NCBI GenBank assembly: GCA_025782575.1
Contig: JALGYY010000035.1
Coordinates: 340,670-404,669, forward strand
Source of the DNA: a bacterium
GTDB lineage: Bacteria; Orphanbacterota; Orphanbacteria; Orphanbacterales; Orphanbacteraceae
Direction: 5' to 3'
Length of the DNA: 64,000 nucleotides
In this document: positions 2,958 to 42,990 of the stretch, in pieces
Numbering within the stretch: position 1 is the stretch's first letter
Layout: every line of letters starts with the position of its first letter
The notes under the pieces: generated by a model
Told to the model about the DNA's origin: nothing
What the model saw: the letters and a program-made list of their open reading frames with translations, nothing else
The model's database searches: none
Program-made: the position numbers and the translations under genes

Positions 2958-3098
2958 ATGCGAAGCGTGTTCCCCCTGGCCGGCCCATCGCCGACTCGCT
3001 GGCTCCTTCCGGGCATGTTCGGCGCCGCCACTCTCGGCGCCCTGTTCACCGCGTTCCGACTGATTCGAAAAATCCGGAGAGGAGGGAAAGAGAAATGA
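2958..3098 (+). CDS. small hydrophobic membrane protein, hypothetical (start uncertain)
   Basis: One or two predicted TM helices. Stop overlaps the GGDEF start (ATGA), suggesting translational coupling within a STAS-GGDEF operon. The longer ORF begins at 2811 inside the STAS gene. Confidence 0.3.
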   Translation: MRSVFPLAGPSPTRWLLPGMFGAATLGALFTAFRLIRKIRRGGKEK

Positions 3099-3970
3099 GC
3101 GACCGACAGACAGCCCGACCTGCCGATTCCCTTCTTCGAATCGCCTCCCTTCGAGACTTTGATGGTTCCCGGGATCGATTGATCAGACGATTCCTGATCG
3201 ACCTCTCGAGAGAACCGGGGGGGGAAGGGGCTTCGCTCCTCCTCGATGAGGAGAACGGGGAGATTCTCTACCATCTGGCCGGAACAAAACTCGTCAGACA
3301 GGAAGTGGGGGAAGGGGAGGGAACGGGGTCCCCCTCGGGCCACGAACTTACCATAGAGACACTCGCCGGCAAGCCGATCGGCTTCCTCATTCTGGACAGT
3401 CCGGTAGACGAGAATCATCATATTCTATCGCTCTCTGGATTCCTGGGCGTGACTCTCGACAACCTGGCTCTTCTCGACGAAGCCCGGATCGAAAGCAGGA
3501 TCGATCCGATTACGGGCATCCATAACTACCGGCATGTGACGGAAGAACTGCAGCGCGAACTCGACAGAGCGCGAAGGTTTGACCGTGTTTTTTCGATTCT
3601 CATGGCCGATCTGGACCGCTTCAAAGAAATCAATGATCGCCTGGGACATCTCAAGGGAAACAGTGCACTCAGAAAAATCGCGCAACTCTTTCTGCATTCG
3701 ATCCGATCAGTAGATACAGCGGCCAAGTATGGTGGCGACGAGTTCCTGATCATCCTGCCGGATACGGGCGGGGAGGGGGCTTTTCAGGCTGCCGAAAGGC
3801 TCTTGAGCCACCTGTCGGAGTTGTCACTCGAGGAGGAGATGCGAATCTCCGCCTCGATCGGCGTGGCGACCTATCCGACCGACGGAAAACAGGCGCGCGA
3901 GTTGATCGGCTCCGCCGACCGAGCACTTTATCGTGCTAAAGATAGGGGAGGTGGCGCCGTTGCCGCATGA
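3095..3970 (+). CDS. diguanylate cyclase (GAF-like N-terminus + GGDEF)
   Basis: GGDEF domain with intact YGGDEF active site and RxxD-like region. DRFKEINDRLGH motif. Confidence 0.85.
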   Translation: MSDRQTARPADSLLRIASLRDFDGSRDRLIRRFLIDLSREPGGEGASLLLDEENGEILYHLAGTKLVRQEVGEGEGTGSPSGHELTIETLAGKPIGFLILDSPVDENHHILSLSGFLGVTLDNLALLDEARIESRIDPITGIHNYRHVTEELQRELDRARRFDRVFSILMADLDRFKEINDRLGHLKGNSALRKIAQLFLHSIRSVDTAAKYGGDEFLIILPDTGGEGAFQAAERLLSHLSELSLEEEMRISASIGVATYPTDGKQARELIGSADRALYRAKDRGGGAVAA

Positions 3971-28995: not shown

Positions 28996-30075
28996 CTAGC
29001 GACCGCTTTTGAGAAATTCCTTGATGGATTGATAGATCTCCTCTTTCGACGAGATCTCGGACAAAACGAGTTTCGGTTCTTCTTCAACCTTCTCCCTCAG
29101 GTCCTTCACGAACTGACCTGTACCGTAGAGGCTCTTCACCTGGCCGTAGGAAAATTGATTAGCCGCGGGAATCAGCTTCTTCTTCAGAAGATCGATGGCG
29201 AGATCCGTGTCGCCCCCACCCCAGTTGTCACCATCGGAAAAGTGAAACGGGTAGATATTCCACTCCGAGACGGGATAATCCCGCTTGATCATGGCTTGAC
29301 ACAGCTCATAGGCGGACGAGATCTTGGTTCCACCACTTTCTCTCGTGTGATAGAAAGTCTCACGGTCCACCTCGCGCGCCACGGCATCGTGAATGATGTA
29401 ACGGGTCTCGATGTTCTTGTATTGCGATCGGAGCCACGTATCGATCCAGAACGACTCGAGCCGCACGATTTCTTTCTGTTCGTCCCCCATCGACCCTGAC
29501 ACATCCATCATGTAGATGACGGCGGCATTCGACTCGGGTTCCTCGACCGTCTTCCACGATCGATAACGACGGTCCTCGCGAATCGGCACGATGACCGGAT
29601 TGTCTTTATCGTAAGAGCCCGACGCGATCTGACGCTTGAGAGCCGCTGCATAAGTTCGCTTAAACTGTCTCAGTGATTCGGGGCCGGTCTTGCGGATCGA
29701 AGTGTACCTGTCCCTGACATTCTCGATCTCCATCTTGCCCCGGGGTTCGATATTGGGAAGCTCGAGTTCCTCCCCCATGATCTTGGCGAGTTCATCGAGT
29801 GAAACCTCCACTTCGAGTATGTGCTGACCCTCGGCATCTCCGGCCTCCGGCGTCACGGCCTCGCCCTCTTCCCCATCTCCCTGGCCGACCCCCCCGGATC
29901 CATTGTCACCGAAGTGGAATCGAGGTATTTCAATCTGCGGAATCGGAATGGAAACGAACTTCTTGCCTTGGCGGCCGATCAGTTCGCCCTTGGTGATATA
30001 TTGCTTGAGGTGCTTCTTGATACTTCCACGCACGATCTTCTTGAATCGCGTGTGGTCACGTCGAATTCTCAGCAC
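28996..30075 (-). CDS. YeaH/DUF444 (UPF0229) family protein
   Basis: vWA-like core ([14 protein letters not shown]) with a YeaH-like N-terminus. GTG start. Confidence 0.85.
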
Positions 30076-30113
30076 GCCACTCGCCCCCCTCGATCAAACG
30101 AAGCGCGCATCGA

Positions 30114-32150
30114 TCAGCTGCTCTCCTTGATGTCACCTCTCGCGAAGATGGAGGCCACGAAATTGAGCACGTCCGTTGCGCTTGCGTCGTTGTATCCGAA
30201 ATTCTCGATGAGCCGACCCTTGACCACATCAATTTTCTCCTGGGCTTCCTGATCGACCACACTCGATACCAGGCTCGTCAGCTTGATCGTGTCTTTCTGG
30301 TCCTCGAAGAGCTTCAGCTCGAGCGCTTTCTGGAGGCGGGGATTGGCTCGGTAGTCGAACCGTTTCCCATCTACCGCCAGGGCACCGATATAGTTCATGA
30401 TCTCACGGCGAAAGTCGTCTTTCCGGCTCTCGGGAATATCGATCTTTTCCTCAATCGAACGCATCAGGCGCTCATCCGGCTCTTCACTCTGGCCCGTGTA
30501 CTTGTTGCGGACCTTTTCTTTCTGCGTGTACGCTTTTACATTGTCGATGTAGTTGGCACAGAGCTTCATGATCGAGTCCTCGTCCGCCGAAATTGCCCTC
30601 TGCACCTCATTCTTAACAATGTCTTCGTATTCTTCCCTCGCCACAGAAAGGAGCTCGGTGAAGCGTTTTCGCTGTTCCTCCGAACTGATCAATGTGTGAT
30701 GGCGGAGTCCGCTCGCAAGCTCATTCAGAACCATGAACGGGTTCAGATAGTCCTCATCCAGGTCGCTCACCAGGGCGTTCGAGATCTTGTCCTGTATATA
30801 GCGCGGCGAGATTCCCTCCATTCCCTCGTGCACGACTTCCTTCCGCAGCTCTTTAACGTTCTCTTCCGTAAAGCCAGGGAGCGACTTGCCGTCGTACAGC
30901 TTCAGTTTCTGTATGAGGGAAAGCTGCCCCTTCTTAGGATCTTCGAGCCGCGTCAACACGGCCCACATCGCCGCGATTTCGATCGTGTGCGGTGCAATAT
31001 GTTTCGCGATCTTCTTCTCGTTATAGTCCTTGTTGTAGATTCGAATTTCATCGCGAAGCTTGGTAATATAGGGGATATCGATTTTCACAGTCCTGTCACG
31101 AAGAGCCTCCATGTACTCGTTCTTCTGAAGTTTCTTGAACTCGGGCTCGTTCGTGTGGCCGATGATCACCTCGTCAATATCGGTCTGTGGGAATTTCTTC
31201 GGCTTGATCTTGTGTTCCTGGGAGGCTCCGAGCAGATCGTACAGGAATGCGACATCGAGTTTCAAAACCTCGACGAACTCGACAATACCCCGGTTCGCAA
31301 CGTTGAACTCGCCGTCGAAATTGAATGCCCGCGGGTCGGAATCGGATCCGTATTCCGCGATCTTCCTGTAATTGATATCCCCGGTGAGCTCCGTGGAATC
31401 CTGGTTTTTTTCGTCCTTTGGTTGGAACGTGCCGATGCCGACTCTGTCTTTTTCGGAAATCAGGAGACGCTTGACGACGATGTGATCGAGTACCCGGGAC
31501 CAGTCACCTTTGTACTCATCCAAGTATCGGGCGTACTGAAAGCGGCAGAAAGGATTCAAATCCCCGGCGATCACAATAGGATAGGGGACCCGCTCTGCGA
31601 GCTCTTCGATCAGCCCCGCCCGAGCCTCATCAGGCAGAAGACGGATGGGATCTTCATGCATGGGGGACCATTCGATCTGGCCGGTTTCGGGGTCCTTCCA
31701 GCCATATGTATACAGAGCCCCCTCAGGTATTCGTGAATAGGCTTCCAGTCCATGCTTCAGCAAGCGGACAATTGTCGACTTCGAACTACCCACCGGCCCG
31801 TGAAGGAGAAGAATTCGCTTCTCAGGCCCATAGCCGAGCGCGGCCGCTTTAAATATCTTAATGAGCTTCATGAGGGGGAGATCGAGCCCGAAGACAGCGT
31901 CAGCCCCACGGTTCATGGGATCACTGAAGAAATTATAGTGGATGATATTCTTTTTGCTGTCCTGGTACTCCTTGGTTCCGTAGGAGAGCACCATGTCATA
32001 GACACGTTGATAGGCAGTGCGGAGAACGCTCGGATTGTCATAGACAATGTTCAGATAATCTACGAAGTTTCCGGTCCAGTTGAGTTGCTCGTACCGATCA
32101 ACACTCTGGGCCGCTCGAGCCTTCTGAATTAAATCCTGGCCTCTGGACAT
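30114..32150 (-). CDS. prkA: PrkA-family serine protein kinase (YeaG-like AAA+ kinase)
   Basis: 678 aa with Walker A ([13 protein letters not shown]) and PrkA C-terminal domains. AGGAGGGG RBS. Confidence 0.9.
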
Positions 32151-33054: not shown

Positions 33055-34092
33055 TCATCGGTGGCCGCGACTCTTTGTGCCGCCTGACCTCCCGCCTCCT
33101 CCGGATCGGCCGGGCGCTTTGCTCCCGCCGGCGTGTCCCGATCGGGATGTTCGGCCCGACCTCGAGATCTTGGAGCCGCTGCTGCCCCGGCTTGACGACG
33201 GCCGATCGACTCGCGCGCTGCTCTTCCCACCTGTCCGGCGAGTCCGACCTACCTGTGCGGACTCTCGTGTTCCTCTGGACCGGCTCCCCCGTTGAACTTT
33301 CGTTCCGGACGAGCGTGTGCTCCGTTCCGTCACATAACGATGCGATGAGGCTCGGGATCTTGTGGTTCTGAACTTCGACCGGCTCGAACTTGTGCGGCTC
33401 GCCGCCGCCACGGTTCGGGTCCTCCGATCCTTGCCATAGGAAGAACGGTAGGCCGTCTCGTAAGTGCGGCCGCCTCCGGGCGTGTTGTAGTGGTGATCAT
33501 TATGGTGACCGTACTGGTATCCATAGTGATGCCCCCACTGTTGGCCGTAATACCAGCTGACATAGAGCCCGGTGGAGTAGTACGGATAGTATGGGTAATA
33601 TGAGGAATAGTAATACGAATAAGGGTCATGATGCCACGAAGCGTAATACCATGGATCGTACCAGAACCAGTCCCAGTACCAGGGATCGTTCGCCCAGGTG
33701 TTTCGGGGGACCGCGTAGGGCACAAGGGCGATATCGACTGAGCTCGGACTGTCATACCGGTTGTAGCCGATCTCCGCAGGAATTTCGCTCTTCTCTTCTT
33801 CCAGCTCGATATCGGACGGAGGAGTTTCCCTCAGGCCGTTATATTCCGATGAGCGGATCATCGCTTCGATTACGCTCTCAGGAACTCCTTCCTCTTTCAG
33901 TTCCAGAATGTCGTCCGCTGTCAGTTCGAACGATTTGCCGCTTGCTTCGATCTGTGCAATGACGACACGTTCACCGACTCCCGCCTCGAGCAGCAGGATC
34001 ACTTCATCGATATCGAAGTCGACAGCCTGAACATCGGGAGAGATCAGAAAGAACAGAGGGAGAATCAAGATCCAGGGCAAGCGCCTATACAT
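33055..34092 (-). CDS. secreted low-complexity protein: tandem helical repeats + Trp/Tyr/His-rich segment + Arg/Ser/Gly-rich basic tail
   Basis: Signal peptide MYRRLPWILILPLFFLISPDVQA after an AGGAG RBS. About 70 aa are W/Y/H/P/D/S only (PWYWDWFWYDPWYYASWHHDPYSYYYSSYYPYY). About 150 aa are R/S/G/T-rich. Confidence 0.6.
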   Translation of the reverse strand: MYRRLPWILILPLFFLISPDVQAVDFDIDEVILLLEAGVGERVVIAQIEASGKSFELTADDILELKEEGVPESVIEAMIRSSEYNGLRETPPSDIELEEEKSEIPAEIGYNRYDSPSSVDIALVPYAVPRNTWANDPWYWDWFWYDPWYYASWHHDPYSYYYSSYYPYYPYYSTGLYVSWYYGQQWGHHYGYQYGHHNDHHYNTPGGGRTYETAYRSSYGKDRRTRTVAAASRTSSSRSKFRTTRSRASSHRYVTERSTRSSGTKVQRGSRSRGTRESAQVGRTRRTGGKSSARVDRPSSSRGSSGSKISRSGRTSRSGHAGGSKAPGRSGGGGRSGGTKSRGHR

Positions 34093-34282
34093 GACCGGAC
34101 TCCTGGAAGGGGTAAATGCAATCGTCAAGATGACCATACCTCAGAACCTGTGAAATTGCAAGGGCTTCTGGGGACTGACACCCTCGGGACGCCTCCCCTC
34201 CCTCGCCCGGGCACTCTTCGAATCCGGGCACTCCGGACACTCCGAGTTTCGGCGGGCGCCCCTCTTTATTGAAACACGGAAA

Positions 34283-34968: not shown

Positions 34969-35226
34969 ATTGTTACCTCCTCTTGCGTTGTTGTGAGAAC
35001 TGACTCTCAGAGGGAGCAACGGATGTGCCATGAAGAAAGAACTGCATAAGCTACTGGGATCGAATTAATTAGGAAGGTGGGGCACGAGAAGAGTCTCAGG
35101 AGAGATGAACCGATTCGAGCGGGTGGCTTTGTCAGGTGTTCGAAGTGGAACGAAAAACCGGCCCGATACCCCTCTGGGCGATCCGGACCGGTTCTCGAGT
35201 TTTTCGGACGTCTCCCAGGCGGTAGC

Positions 35227-35397
35227 CTAAAGGTCCTGCGGCTTCAGCGTCTTCCGGTTGTTCGCAACGGCGCGCTTCTCGGCCTTCGCGATCAAGGAGC
35301 GTACTTCCCTGTCCAGAGCATCGTAGAAATCGCTCGAGACGTTGCAGTTCTCGGCTGCGGCTTTCGTCCGGCTCTTCGAAATGATTAGATCTGCCAT
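35227..35397 (-). CDS. bacterial histone-fold protein (HBb/DUF1931-like singlet histone, 56 aa)
   Basis: MADLIISKSRTKAAAENCNVSSDFYDALDREVRSLIAKAEKRAVANNRKTLKPQDL. The architecture and the C-terminal RKTxxxxDL match archaeal HMf (RKTIKAEDI) and the Bdellovibrio HBb histone. GGGAGGG RBS 7 nt upstream. Confidence 0.6.
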   Translation of the reverse strand: MADLIISKSRTKAAAENCNVSSDFYDALDREVRSLIAKAEKRAVANNRKTLKPQDL

Positions 35398-35500
35398 ACC
35401 TATACCCTCCCGAAATATCCACTGGAGACGGGGCCCTTCCCCGTTCTCCCGCCTATAATTCCGACGCACCGGGGGTCTGTCAACGAAAAAAACGCCTGAT

Positions 35501-37480
35501 TCAAGGTCGAGAGGCCGTCTCGCGGTATTCCTTGGCCCGGGGTGCGGAGACGGTTCGCAGGAGAGTGATCCCGGCAGCACCCAGGAGCAGGGCGCCCACG
35601 ACTGTCTGAGTCGAGACTTCATCGATAAGAGCCAACCCTTCGAAACGGCCACCCAGCAGCACAGTTGCGTTGTACAGGATGTGAAGCACCATGGGCGGTA
35701 CGATCGATCGACTTCTGTAGGCGAGAACGCCCGCAACGATTCCCATGATCGCCGTCGGCAGGAGCCGGTAGATGCTCAGGTGGAACAGGCCGAAGAAAAG
35801 ACCGCCCACCAGAATCGCCTTCCAGGGCTCCATCCCTCTCTCATGACGTCCCAGGATCAGCCCGCGAAAAAAGAGCTCCTCACAGATCCCGGGACTCACT
35901 GCAATTGCAAACAGGAGCATGGGGAGGCCCCCACCACCGATATCCAGAAGCCCCTCCATCTCCTTGAAGAGCTGCTCGGGTACGGGAAGGAAACGGCTTT
36001 GCAGGTGGAACATGAGGTTTGCGGCAAACAGTGTGGGAAGCGCCAGCAGGGCAGCCGCCACTACATGACCGACGGCCGGAAGCCTGAGACGAAACGTGTC
36101 AAGGTACGGAAGCTGATAGTACCGGGCGAACAGGAGTGACGGAATCAGAAGCAGTCCCCAAAGCGTCAGAAGCAGGCCGCTCAGCAGATCGTAGGCCTGA
36201 ATTGTGCTTCCGACGTAATAGAGAAGCAGCAGTTGTATGAAATAGAAAACATTGACTTCCCTGACCAGGGACCGATCGGCGCCCCGAGCCGGAGAGATTG
36301 AAGGAGCTGGGCCAAGTACAACCGCTTCACTCTCGAGATAGGAAACCGCTTTTCGGAGAACGATCACCGCGCAAATCGCATTCGAAAGAAAGACGGCGAT
36401 CAGGGGGAGGACGGGGAAGTTTCCGAGCAGCGCCTCCCGGACGGCGAGCGAAACGTTGGCGATCGGAGCGAACGCCGCCACGGAATCAAGACGGATTCCT
36501 GGCAGAAGCGCAATAGCGGCAGGCACGATCGAAAGAAGCATAATCGGCATGAGGAGGGTCTGTGCTTCCCGATAAGTCCTTGCATGACTTGCCGTCAGAA
36601 CAAGTACCGCGCTCAGAAAGATCGCCAGCGGCAGTGTAACGAGAACGACCACGAGTCCTGTCCCGGGCGAAAGCTCGAGAGAGGCCCGCGCCGCCGCCCC
36701 TCCCGTCAGTCCGAGTTTGATGGCGACGAAGTTCGAGACGAGAAAGAGGATGACCGAAGTGATCGCCATGAGAACGACAGCGAGGAACTTTCCCGCCACG
36801 ACCGACCTCCTGTCAGCGAGCGAAGTGAGCAACGTCTCGATCGTTCGTCGTTCCTTCTCACCGCTGAAGAGATCAACCGCTATGACCGAGGCGCCGTTCA
36901 TGAGAATGAGAACGAGAAAAATCGGGAAGATACGGCCGAATTTACTCCCCGCCATTCGCTCTTCTGAAGCGATGTTGGTCTCCTCCACATCGACCACAAG
37001 ATCCAGGTCGGCCGGAGCGCCGATTTCCTGGAGCCGTTCCCGGCGGAGTTCCCCCCTCCAGGAATCCACATGGTCCCGTATACGCTCCCGGGCCAGGCGG
37101 GACAGTTCCTTCGACCCATCGTAGAGAATCGAGATCTCCGTGGATGAATTCCCCTTTGTCGGGAATGTCGCAGGCAAGATGACGGACGCCTGTAATTCTT
37201 CCCGCCGAATGGACTGCTCGAAATTACTGGTCTCGCGGATTTCGATCAGATGATCTTCTTCGATTCTCTTTCGGAAACTGCGATCGGATCCGTCGATCGC
37301 CACCCAGACCGTTTCGTCTTCAAGGCCCTTTTCCCGCATCTCTTCGAGTCGTTGCTGGCCGAACAGGAGAACGGGAAAGAACGCGATGGGAAAAACGATC
37401 GTGGCGATAATACTCCGCCGATCACGCAGGATGTCGATCGCTTCCTTGCGGAATACGATGCCGGTGTCGCGGAGATTCAC
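35501..37480 (-). CDS. ABC-2 family permease fused to a C-terminal CPBP (CAAX/Abi) intramembrane metalloprotease domain
   Basis: N-terminal roughly 400 aa is an ABC-2 permease (large extracytoplasmic loop after TM1). C-terminal EELFFRG...FGLFHL...HILYN are CPBP motifs 1-3. ATGA overlap with the ATPase gene. Confidence 0.75.
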   Translation of the reverse strand: MNLRDTGIVFRKEAIDILRDRRSIIATIVFPIAFFPVLLFGQQRLEEMREKGLEDETVWVAIDGSDRSFRKRIEEDHLIEIRETSNFEQSIRREELQASVILPATFPTKGNSSTEISILYDGSKELSRLARERIRDHVDSWRGELRRERLQEIGAPADLDLVVDVEETNIASEERMAGSKFGRIFPIFLVLILMNGASVIAVDLFSGEKERRTIETLLTSLADRRSVVAGKFLAVVLMAITSVILFLVSNFVAIKLGLTGGAAARASLELSPGTGLVVVLVTLPLAIFLSAVLVLTASHARTYREAQTLLMPIMLLSIVPAAIALLPGIRLDSVAAFAPIANVSLAVREALLGNFPVLPLIAVFLSNAICAVIVLRKAVSYLESEAVVLGPAPSISPARGADRSLVREVNVFYFIQLLLLYYVGSTIQAYDLLSGLLLTLWGLLLIPSLLFARYYQLPYLDTFRLRLPAVGHVVAAALLALPTLFAANLMFHLQSRFLPVPEQLFKEMEGLLDIGGGGLPMLLFAIAVSPGICEELFFRGLILGRHERGMEPWKAILVGGLFFGLFHLSIYRLLPTAIMGIVAGVLAYRSRSIVPPMVLHILYNATVLLGGRFEGLALIDEVSTQTVVGALLLGAAGITLLRTVSAPRAKEYRETASRP

Positions 37481-39479: not shown

Positions 39480-40562
39480 TTACCGCCGGTCAGTTCCGGA
39501 GGCTGGAAAGAGTCCCGCGTGTCCCTCGAGAGCAAGGAGCTTCTCTTTACTTTCGAGGCCCCCTGAAAACCCGTGAAGTCTTCCCCGGCTCGAAAGAACC
39601 CGATGACATGGAATCACCAGAGGAAGAGGATTTCCGCCGAGTGCTCCCCCCACGGCCCGCGTCGCACGGGGCCGGCCGATTTTTTCCGCCAGATCGCCGT
39701 AACTCCGGACGGAGCCGAAGGGAATTTCGGCACAGGCCGCGAGCACATCGGACTGGAAAGGGCTCGCATCGATCAGGCGGTAGGGAAACGTGAATTGCTT
39801 TCGATTGCCGGCAAAATACTGATCCAACTCCCGCATGACCGGTTGGAGCCGGCCGGGATCTGAAATCCCCTTCGGCGCGAAACGAGGCACGAGACAGGAC
39901 AACCACTCCCGTTCGGACCGGTTGCCGATCCCGATTCGCACAACCGCCCCGTCGACCATGGCTGCCCAGATCCGTCCGATCGGTGAGTCCGTCGAGCTGT
40001 AGCCGGCGGTCCGATCCGGCTCGGGCCCGTCTTTCTTGAGCCGACGCCGAAGTCGGTTCCGAACAGCTGCAGGAAACGAATTTCGAAACAACTTTTCGAA
40101 AACGCCTTCAGGAGGCCGGCCGGTCTGCTCGGAGAGCCGTTTCAAAAGTCGATTGCTGCGTTTCCTGAGCGTCCCGGGAGTGATCTTGAGAAGTGTAGCC
40201 ATCTTCTCGGATCCCATGACGGGCAGGCTGAAGACCACATGCGCAAGCTTCTCGATTTCCGGGAGATTATTCCAGACCTCCAGAATCTGCGCCGCGGTCC
40301 CTCTCCGAGCGTCCCTCTTCCCTCCGGAGATCGGCTTGTACCGTACTTTCCTGGCACGCTCTCGATAGAGCCTCAAGAGGCGAATGGCAGACTGCAGACT
40401 CTCTGTCCGGTTCGCCCCCCGCTTTCCGCCACTCCAGGATCTGAGGAAGAACTCATGAATCAGATCTTCCGCGTCCAGTGGATCATGTACGAGGAGGAAA
40501 AAGAAAGGGCCCACCCACGTAGACCGATCATCGAAGTCTTTGTCAGGCACCTCTACCTCCAC
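39480..40562 (-). CDS. fusion protein: sigma-70-like region-2/4 HTH N-terminal domain + methylated-DNA-protein-cysteine methyltransferase (Ogt/MGMT) C-terminal domain
   Basis: C-terminus has the MGMT DNA-binding and active-site motif (VIPCHRVL). N-terminus has an ECF-sigma-like r2 region (DAEDLIHEFFLRSW) and an r4-like HTH (EKMATLLKITPGTLRKRSNRLLKRL). 3-nt gap to the ABC permease gene. The printed A-run near 40497-40505 is one nt shorter than the ORF track implies. Confidence 0.7.
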   Translation of the reverse strand: MEVEVPDKDFDDRSTWVGPFFFLLVHDPLDAEDLIHEFFLRSWSGGKRGANRTESLQSAIRLLRLYRERARKVRYKPISGGKRDARRGTAAQILEVWNNLPEIEKLAHVVFSLPVMGSEKMATLLKITPGTLRKRSNRLLKRLSEQTGRPPEGVFEKLFRNSFPAAVRNRLRRRLKKDGPEPDRTAGYSSTDSPIGRIWAAMVDGAVVRIGIGNRSEREWLSCLVPRFAPKGISDPGRLQPVMRELDQYFAGNRKQFTFPYRLIDASPFQSDVLAACAEIPFGSVRSYGDLAEKIGRPRATRAVGGALGGNPLPLVIPCHRVLSSRGRLHGFSGGLESKEKLLALEGHAGLFPASGTDRR

Positions 40563-42658: not shown

Positions 42659-42731
42659 GTCCCCATCGTCTAGTGGCCTAGGACATCGCCCTTTCACGGC
42701 GGGAACAGGGGTTCGACTCCCCTTGGGGACG
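42659..42731 (+). tRNA. tRNA-Glu (anticodon UUC)
   Basis: Near-identical to canonical bacterial tRNA-Glu. Anticodon loop ctTTCac. No encoded CCA. Confidence 0.9.
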
Positions 42732-42990
42732 CTTCATCGTTATCGATCCGGCACAGCCTACTCCGGCTCGGGATCACTCCCCACCACCAGAGCGGCTCCA
42801 GCTCTTTCTTCTCCGGCCAGATCTGATTGAGGGTTTCTCCCTCGAACACCTCACCGTTATTGATCACGAAAGCCACGGAATTCGTATTGCGAATGTTCTC
42901 GAGTGGATTGCGATTCAGAATGACGAGATCGGCGAGCTTACCCTGTTCGATGCTTCCGAGATCATCCGCCAGCCCGAGCTGTCCCGCGCC
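42697..42990 (-). pseudogene. C-terminal fragment of an amidohydrolase-family gene (N-terminal roughly 300 codons absent)
   Basis: Only the terminal TP..AL..AT..A..LGL.DDLGSIExGKLADLVILxxNPLENI...VxNGEVF module is present. The ORF runs on into the opposite-strand tRNA-Glu before meeting a stop. Confidence 0.5.

Follow-up and report, generated by a model that had tools for sequence, protein, structure and literature searches.

A 56-residue bacterial histone-fold protein carrying the residue signature of face-to-face histones

Background

Does a frame of only 56 codons, at 35227-35397 of the 64-kb stretch of DNA analysed here (the window), encode a bacterial histone and, if so, would its product bend DNA as a dimer or wrap it as a tetramer? 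An earlier note, made from the letters of the sequence, had described the frame as a histone-fold gene like that of HBb or the DUF1931 proteins. To our knowledge only two bacterial histones, HBb and HLp, have been studied experimentally. Face-to-face (FtF) histones were defined in 2024, and their wrapping of DNA was first shown in 2025.

Gene and flanking signals

The open reading frame, 56 codons followed by TAG, lies on the minus strand (ATG 35397-35395, TAG 35229-35227); the plus-strand frame of the same interval holds no gene. Its translation, MADLIISKSRTKAAAENCNVSSDFYDALDREVRSLIAKAEKRAVANNRKTLKPQDL, agrees exactly with the sequence quoted by the earlier note, which gave no strand, and corresponds to a protein of 6.2 kDa with a net charge of +2.5 and a pI of 9.4. 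The GGGAGGG Shine-Dalgarno sequence that had been reported with it is present at 35411-35405 (minus strand), 7 nt upstream of the ATG, and in relatives a site of the AGGAGG or GGAGG type is equally far from the start.

Within the 103-nt gap that separates the histone gene from the upstream ABC-2/CPBP gene, a consensus scan predicts a σ70-like promoter, TTGACA-17 nt-AATTAT (35455-35483, minus strand), with 10 of 12 consensus matches and lying about 50 nt upstream of the ATG; it is the sole σ70-like site in the region, against 0.3 expected from shuffled sequences. Beyond the gene, RNA folding suggests a GC-rich, terminator-like hairpin (CCGGUCCGG...UCGGGCCGG) followed by UUUUU at 35153-35191 (minus strand), beginning 36 nt past the stop codon. 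The fold of 35140-35235 on this strand has a minimum free energy of -39.6 kcal/mol (z = -1.97); a simple terminator scan missed the hairpin because of its long loop. Given the candidate promoter, the strong ribosome-binding site and the terminator-like hairpin, the histone gene looks like a separate, well-translated transcription unit, a reading drawn from consensus matches. The GC content of the gene is 0.567, that of the window 0.565, and we saw no compositional anomaly or island at the gene relative to the surrounding DNA. With this, and with no relative found among IMG/VR viral contigs, the idea of a phage-borne or mobile gene was rejected.

Family assignment

Sequence comparison with proteins of known structure places the product among the histones with a truncated third helix. 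The best PDB match is 9F2C, which is HTkC, the FtF histone of Thermococcus kodakarensis (PMC11390915). HLp of Leptospira perolatii, an FtF histone that forms tetramers, is represented by entries 9QT0, 9QT1 and 9QT2, in DNA-free and DNA-bound form (PMC12701072). Searching with the single sequence (phmmer) returned 9F2C at E=1.1e-7, 9QT0 at E=0.0077 and HBb (8FVX/8CMP) at E=0.14-0.15. A profile of the family retrieved only two histones from the PDB, HTkC (E=1.4e-8) and HLp (9QT0-2; E=3.3e-5), HBb being unmatched at E<=10; BLASTP aligned HTkC with 50% identity over 44 aa and HLp with 34% over 56 aa, and gave no alignment with HBb. An hhalign comparison of the family with HMfB (E=1.1e-3) paired CNVS with ERVS and RKTLKPQDL with RKTIKAEDI, leaving a 4-residue gap in α2.

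Histones truncated in α3 are defined by an α2 shortened by 4-5 residues and an α3 of only 3-4 residues (PMC11390915). Both are found here: the gap in the hhalign alignment is matched by a predicted α2 at residues 22-45 of the AlphaFold 2 (AF2) model, and the chain stops at P53-Q54-D55-L56, one residue past the clamp Asp, in end-to-end alignment with ...RPTDF of HLp and with the identical ending in 193 of 193 close homologues. The RxTxxxxD motif that contains the RD clamp is represented by R48, T50 and D55, invariant in the alignment and in the same 193 homologues. We predict α1 at about residues 7-17, L1 at 18-21 (CNVS), α2 at 22-46, L2 at 47-52 (NRKTLK) and a one-turn α3 at 53-56 (PQDL). From sequence homology to crystal structures, the protein is thus supported as a histone-fold member of the α3-truncated family. 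The earlier claim of a bacterial singlet histone fold with a truncated C-terminus is borne out by this homology, and further by the RxTxxxxD motif with its RD clamp, the Ser-Lys motif and the helix-loop-long helix-loop order of the AlphaFold model; the C-terminal RKT....DL that it pointed to is present.

Structure prediction and fold search, which had been proposed as a check, did not yield a confident fold. The AF2 monomer, computed from a 30-sequence alignment, shows the expected order of elements (helices at 10-17 and 22-45, then a C-terminal loop), but its mean pLDDT is only 65, as can be anticipated when an obligate oligomer is modelled from a shallow alignment. A Foldseek search of the PDB with this model yielded four matches, all to histone H2B chains and non-significant (E about 7). 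A tandem doublet from the family (P0271, described below) was modelled as a single-chain proxy for the dimer and proved a dead end: its pLDDT was 55, all singlets aligned to the first repeat, and Foldseek returned meaningless helical-bundle matches.

The DUF1931 part of the earlier label did not hold. The Pfam profile DUF1931 (PF09123) scores 17.3 bits (E=0.0058, positions 20-53 of 138), below its cut-off of 21.8, and reaches E<=0.01 in only 11 of 30 family members. Proteins of that family, such as AQ328 of Aquifex, share a weak half-domain similarity with ours and lend their name to its relatives at NCBI, but they are doublets of roughly 140 aa, cluster separately and do not have the canonical DNA-binding residues. 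With a sub-threshold score and a 56-aa singlet set against a 138-position pseudodimer profile, bona fide membership of DUF1931 was rejected. So was the reading as a nucleosomal archaeal histone of the PF00808 type (CBFD_NFYB_HMF), which scores 13.5 bits (E=0.092; cut-off 21.4) and is at odds with the truncated α3. HMfA and HMfB, of PF00808, share the histone fold and the RKTxxxxD motif, but have an α3 of about 10 aa and an α2 about 4 aa longer, and they form open hypernucleosomes by polymerisation, in contrast to a closed tetramer. An NCBIfam search with the 56-aa protein found no match.

Face-to-face signature

In D4GZE0 the FtF signature consists of R41, N45, R47, T49 and D54, of which R41 makes a salt bridge across to the other dimer, with its C-terminal carboxylate, and a solvent-exposed α1 lysine (K16 of the HMM, K11 of D4GZE0) is a further mark of the type (Schwab et al. 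2024, PMC11390915). The same roles are taken in HLp by R49, N53 and R55, the last forming a clamp with D62 (PMC12701072), and in HTkC the substitution R45A converts the tetramer to a dimer (bioRxiv 10.64898/2025.12.06.692711). R42, N46, R48, T50 and D55 of our protein, with one terminal residue (L56), correspond one-to-one to the published FtF residues at identical spacing. R42, six residues before the clamp Arg, aligns with R45 of HTkC and R49 of HLp, and N46 stands two residues before the clamp Arg; these two, the RxTxxxxD motif and the single residue after its Asp all occur in 193 of 193 close homologues, and the same full set recurs in 117-119 of 150 diverse representatives. K12, aligned with K15 of HTkC by ungapped BLASTP, is invariant, as are K8 and R10.

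Of the residues through which HLp contacts DNA, S14-K15, K17 and T57 have invariant aligned counterparts here in S7-K8, R10 and T50, and K49 restores the nucleosomal RKT lysine. Three positions differ: S52 and T61 of the HLp interface are A45 and Q54 here, and the DNA-contacting K21 is A14. Cys18, also invariant, probably serves neither metal binding nor redox chemistry; HTkC has Met and HLp has Phe at the aligned position, which points to a hydrophobic residue buried in the fold.

HTkC, the closest of the structures, agrees with our protein in the truncated α3, the shortened α2, the RKT motif in L2, the arginine R45 and the absence of a tail, but is archaeal and thermophilic, has Glu in place of Asn two residues before the clamp Arg and a longer, more hydrophobic α1, and coexists with the nucleosomal histones HTkA and HTkB. 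HLp (Hu et al. 2025), also a bacterial singlet, resembles our protein in size and charge, and its R49, N53, R55 and D62 are likewise followed by a single terminal residue; unlike our protein, it has RTT in L2 and a short N-terminal extension, and its gene adjoins smc and map in Leptospira, whereas the window gene lies between an ABC transporter operon and genes for secreted proteins.

These residues also decide how we weigh the alternative that assembly halts at the dimer, which would bend DNA or cover it end-on as is reported for HBb. HBb of Bdellovibrio bacteriovorus (Bd0055; 8CMP, 8FVX; Hocher et al. 2023, PMC10627809; Hu et al. 2024) belongs to the same α3-truncated superfamily, is a singlet of about 60 aa, and has the RKT motif in L2 with its middle Lys, the RD clamp and the S-K motif noted before as typical of bacterial singlets, and a single-sequence search does find it, at the weak E value given above. 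However, HBb is a strict, DNA-bending dimer, and the phmmer alignment shows its Ser and Asp where the tetramerisation residues would stand. Bacterial dimer histones by definition lack those residues (R48 and N52 in HMM numbering; PMC11390915), which are invariant in our family as R42 and N46. The similarity to HBb is non-significant and the protein does not cluster with it; HTkC and HLp are the only PDB histones that the profile matched. We consider an HBb-like dimer unlikely. What survives of the HBb/DUF1931-like label is therefore the bacterial singlet histone, and not the HBb subfamily; with the FtF subfamily in its place, the expected mechanism shifts from a DNA-bending dimer to a DNA-wrapping tetramer.

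Proposed function

We infer that the gene probably encodes a nucleoid protein of the FtF type, one that assembles into toroidal tetramers with about 60 bp of DNA wound round each. Two monomers would pair in the usual head-to-tail histone dimer, and two dimers would close into a toroidal tetramer through both interfaces made of the α2 end, L2 and α3. In this ring R42 would reach across to the opposite dimer and bind its C-terminal carboxylate (L56), N46 would hydrogen-bond the opposite R48, and the R48-D55 clamp would shape loop L2. S7-K8, R10, K12, K49 and T50 would bind DNA without sequence specificity, so that about 60 bp could wrap round the ring, and the protein, transcribed from a promoter of its own and translated from a strong ribosome-binding site, would be an abundant nucleoid-associated protein. 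The argument for tetramer formation comes from the conserved interface residues; DNA wrapping, abundance and a nucleoid role of the 56-aa protein are likewise deduced. For HLp, wrapping of about 60 bp by a closed toroidal tetramer has been shown, and wrapping by HTkC is similar; the two were studied by EMSA, MNase or TPM experiments, and HLp protects fragments of 35-72 bp from MNase.

Against the reading as a DNA-wrapping tetramer we counted the low-confidence structure models, the A45, Q54 and A14 substitutions, the low charge and the absence of nucleoid genes nearby. The last two, together with the lack of a basic tail in the window lineage and the name 'DUF1931 domain-containing' that NCBI gives to relatives, would suit a role outside chromatin, as a protein-protein scaffold or a specific regulator in the manner of DUF1931 pseudodimers or of the eukaryotic TAF and CENP histone folds, and Schwab et al. 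caution that prokaryotic histone folds are not all necessarily genome organisers (PMC11390915). The DNA-contact positions and the RD clamp are nonetheless invariant, the DUF1931 score is sub-threshold for a protein that is a singlet, and HLp, at +1.5 and pI 9.05, has an equally low charge and yet wraps DNA (PMC12701072). We regard such a role as improbable and retain the DNA-wrapping tetramer as the preferred reading.

Conservation and selection

A single-sequence search of protein databases found 217 proteins at E<=1e-3, 53-93 aa long and 69-100% identical, named 'DUF1931 domain-containing protein' at NCBI and 'histone H3/H4' at JGI. With a profile built from 30 members 4,424 protein clusters were matched, and an exhaustive HMMER search of 1.84 billion representatives gave 634 clusters at E<=1e-3. 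The alignment has 25 invariant positions out of 56. When codons were compared with those of 62 genome loci, the median pN was 0.19 and the median pS 0.63, and for the closest loci ω (dN/dS) is 0.05-0.17; close relatives share the start at the MADL/MAEM position, each behind its own Shine-Dalgarno sequence. Strong purifying selection acts in the 56-codon frame, and these ω values exclude the overlapping open reading frames. That the frame is spurious, and an overlapping 103-aa plus-strand or 96-aa minus-strand frame the real one, might be entertained for so short a frame, with several overlapping ones in DNA of 56% GC, but is effectively refuted by the same frame and end in thousands of homologues, the family profile matches, the conserved start and ribosome-binding site, the low ω and the homology to crystallised proteins, and we give it practically no credence. 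The α3-truncated, FtF-type histone coding sequence at 35227-35397 (minus strand) is a real, conserved gene.

Distribution and variants

Relatives are encoded in 398 GTDB species-representative genomes. The best 80 genome loci all come from metagenome-assembled genomes (MAGs); by record title about 25 are Planctomycetota (including Brocadiaceae), 11 NC10/Methylomirabilota, 9 Krumholzibacteriota, 8 Eisenbacteria, 5 Myxococcota or 'Deltaproteobacteria', 3 Gemmatimonadota and 1 Latescibacterota, the rest being unclassified or bearing single labels. Most relatives (NC10, Planctomycetota, Myxococcota) have Lys/Ala-rich N-terminal tails of 6-40 residues, with net charges up to +20, such as have been reported for bacterial FtF histones (PMC11390915). 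In the window lineage and those nearest to it (Eisenbacteria, Krumholzibacteriota, Gemmatimonadota) the protein begins at MADL or MSDM, lacks a tail and carries about +2.5 to +4.5; at +2.5, against +7 to +20 in the tailed relatives, the tail-less variant is among the least basic of the family.

Doublets occur as well. P0271 (125 aa; 3001-3378 of loci L082, L083 and L084) is an in-frame tandem duplication of the histone, with two identical 57-aa repeats (5-61 and 69-125) joined by the seven residues GPSQSKP. It is found on 5 contigs, and we show it in 3 independent 'Deltaproteobacteria' MAG assemblies; it may be a young pseudodimeric FtF histone. Nine further representatives of about 97-124 aa (P0158, P0163-P0165, P0168, P0173, P0189, P0191 and P0196) contain two profile matches each, so that doublet forms seem to have arisen repeatedly in a singlet family.

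Proteins of what we call the CNVS group are 69-83% identical across Eisenbacteria, Krumholzibacteriota, Gemmatimonadota and NC10/Methylomirabilota, a range that also spans anammox and other Planctomycetota, Latescibacterota and Myxococcota, and the CNVS protein is nearer to archaeal HTkC than to HLp of Leptospira. It is tempting, if rather doubtful, to see in this group a distinct and unusually conserved clade of FtF histones, possibly the principal, nucleosome-like chromatin protein of its uncultured hosts, that passed from archaea to bacteria and then froze in sequence as histones do. The gene belongs to a subfamily present in at least 398 species-level genomes, whose sequence conservation is near that of eukaryotic histones.

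Surveys name Spirochaetota, Planctomycetota, Bdellovibrionota and Myxococcota as the main bacterial hosts of FtF histones, and the supplements of Schwab et al. list no Methylomirabilota, Gemmatimonadota, Krumholzibacteriota, Eisenbacteria or Planctomycetota by name. The assignment would extend the FtF type to uncultured bacteria like Eisenbacteria and Gemmatimonadota. The α3-truncated and FtF family, the tetramer and DNA wrapping were already published between 2023 and 2025; the gene adds a lineage that was not highlighted there, and neither a new principle nor a new kind of protein. The minimal, tail-less form of 56 aa would be convenient for testing whether the rule of Arg, Asn and C-terminal carboxylate predicts tetramerisation and wrapping.

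Genomic neighbourhood

The earlier note had set the gene among secreted and lipoprotein genes, which is right for one side of it. Downstream lie four open reading frames without a Pfam match whose products begin with signal-peptide or lipoprotein-like sequences, and then PrkA and DUF444 genes; upstream, on the same strand, an Ogt/MGMT fusion is followed by an ABC-2/ABC transporter operon (an ABC-2 permease, an ABC ATPase and a fusion of an ABC-2 permease with a CPBP/Rce1-like protease). The same note was correct that no nucleoid genes adjoin, and tblastn found neither an HU gene nor a second histone in the window; the missing neighbours carry little weight, because the gene appears to form its own transcription unit and its neighbours vary between phyla.

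When the ten neighbours from the window were compared by tblastn with 80 genome loci, synteny was confined to six close relatives: three labelled Candidatus Eisenbacteria (L001, L005 and L023), two labelled Gemmatimonadetes (L002 and L056), and L052. Only L001 and L005 extend as far as the PrkA gene, whose product is 82-83% identical there. The host of the window is probably an Eisenbacteria-like member of the FCB group. In other phyla the histone gene has different neighbours, and no cross-phylum partner was found in the 80 loci, so genomic context is silent on function. A first clustering of neighbouring frames had been polluted by spurious long ones that overlap the histone gene in GC-rich DNA.

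The 360-aa product of 39480-40562 (minus strand) joins a C-terminal Ogt/MGMT module (Methyltransf_1N and DNA_binding_1, residues 188-347) to about 185 N-terminal residues without a Pfam match, an arrangement kept in L001, L002, L005 and L023. The gene at 35501-37480 (minus strand), last of the ABC-2/ABC operon and immediately upstream of the histone gene, encodes a 659-aa fusion of an ABC-2 permease to an intramembrane protease domain of CPBP/Rce1-like type at the C-terminus; six related loci have conserved it. At 33055-34137 (minus strand) a putative secreted protein of 360 aa, without a Pfam match, has a middle part extremely rich in Tyr, Trp, His and Pro (YYSSYYPYYPYY...) and a C-terminal half rich in Arg, Ser, Gly and Thr; tblastn of the related loci returned no homologue. 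At 28996-32150 (minus strand) a PrkA serine kinase gene (AAA_PrkA and PrkA domains) is followed by a DUF444 (YeaH-like) gene, together the prkA-yeaH stress module, which is widespread. Rfam and ARAGORN searches of the window matched only tRNA-Arg(CCT) at 2402-2475 and tRNA-Glu(TTC) at 42659-42732, both on the plus strand.
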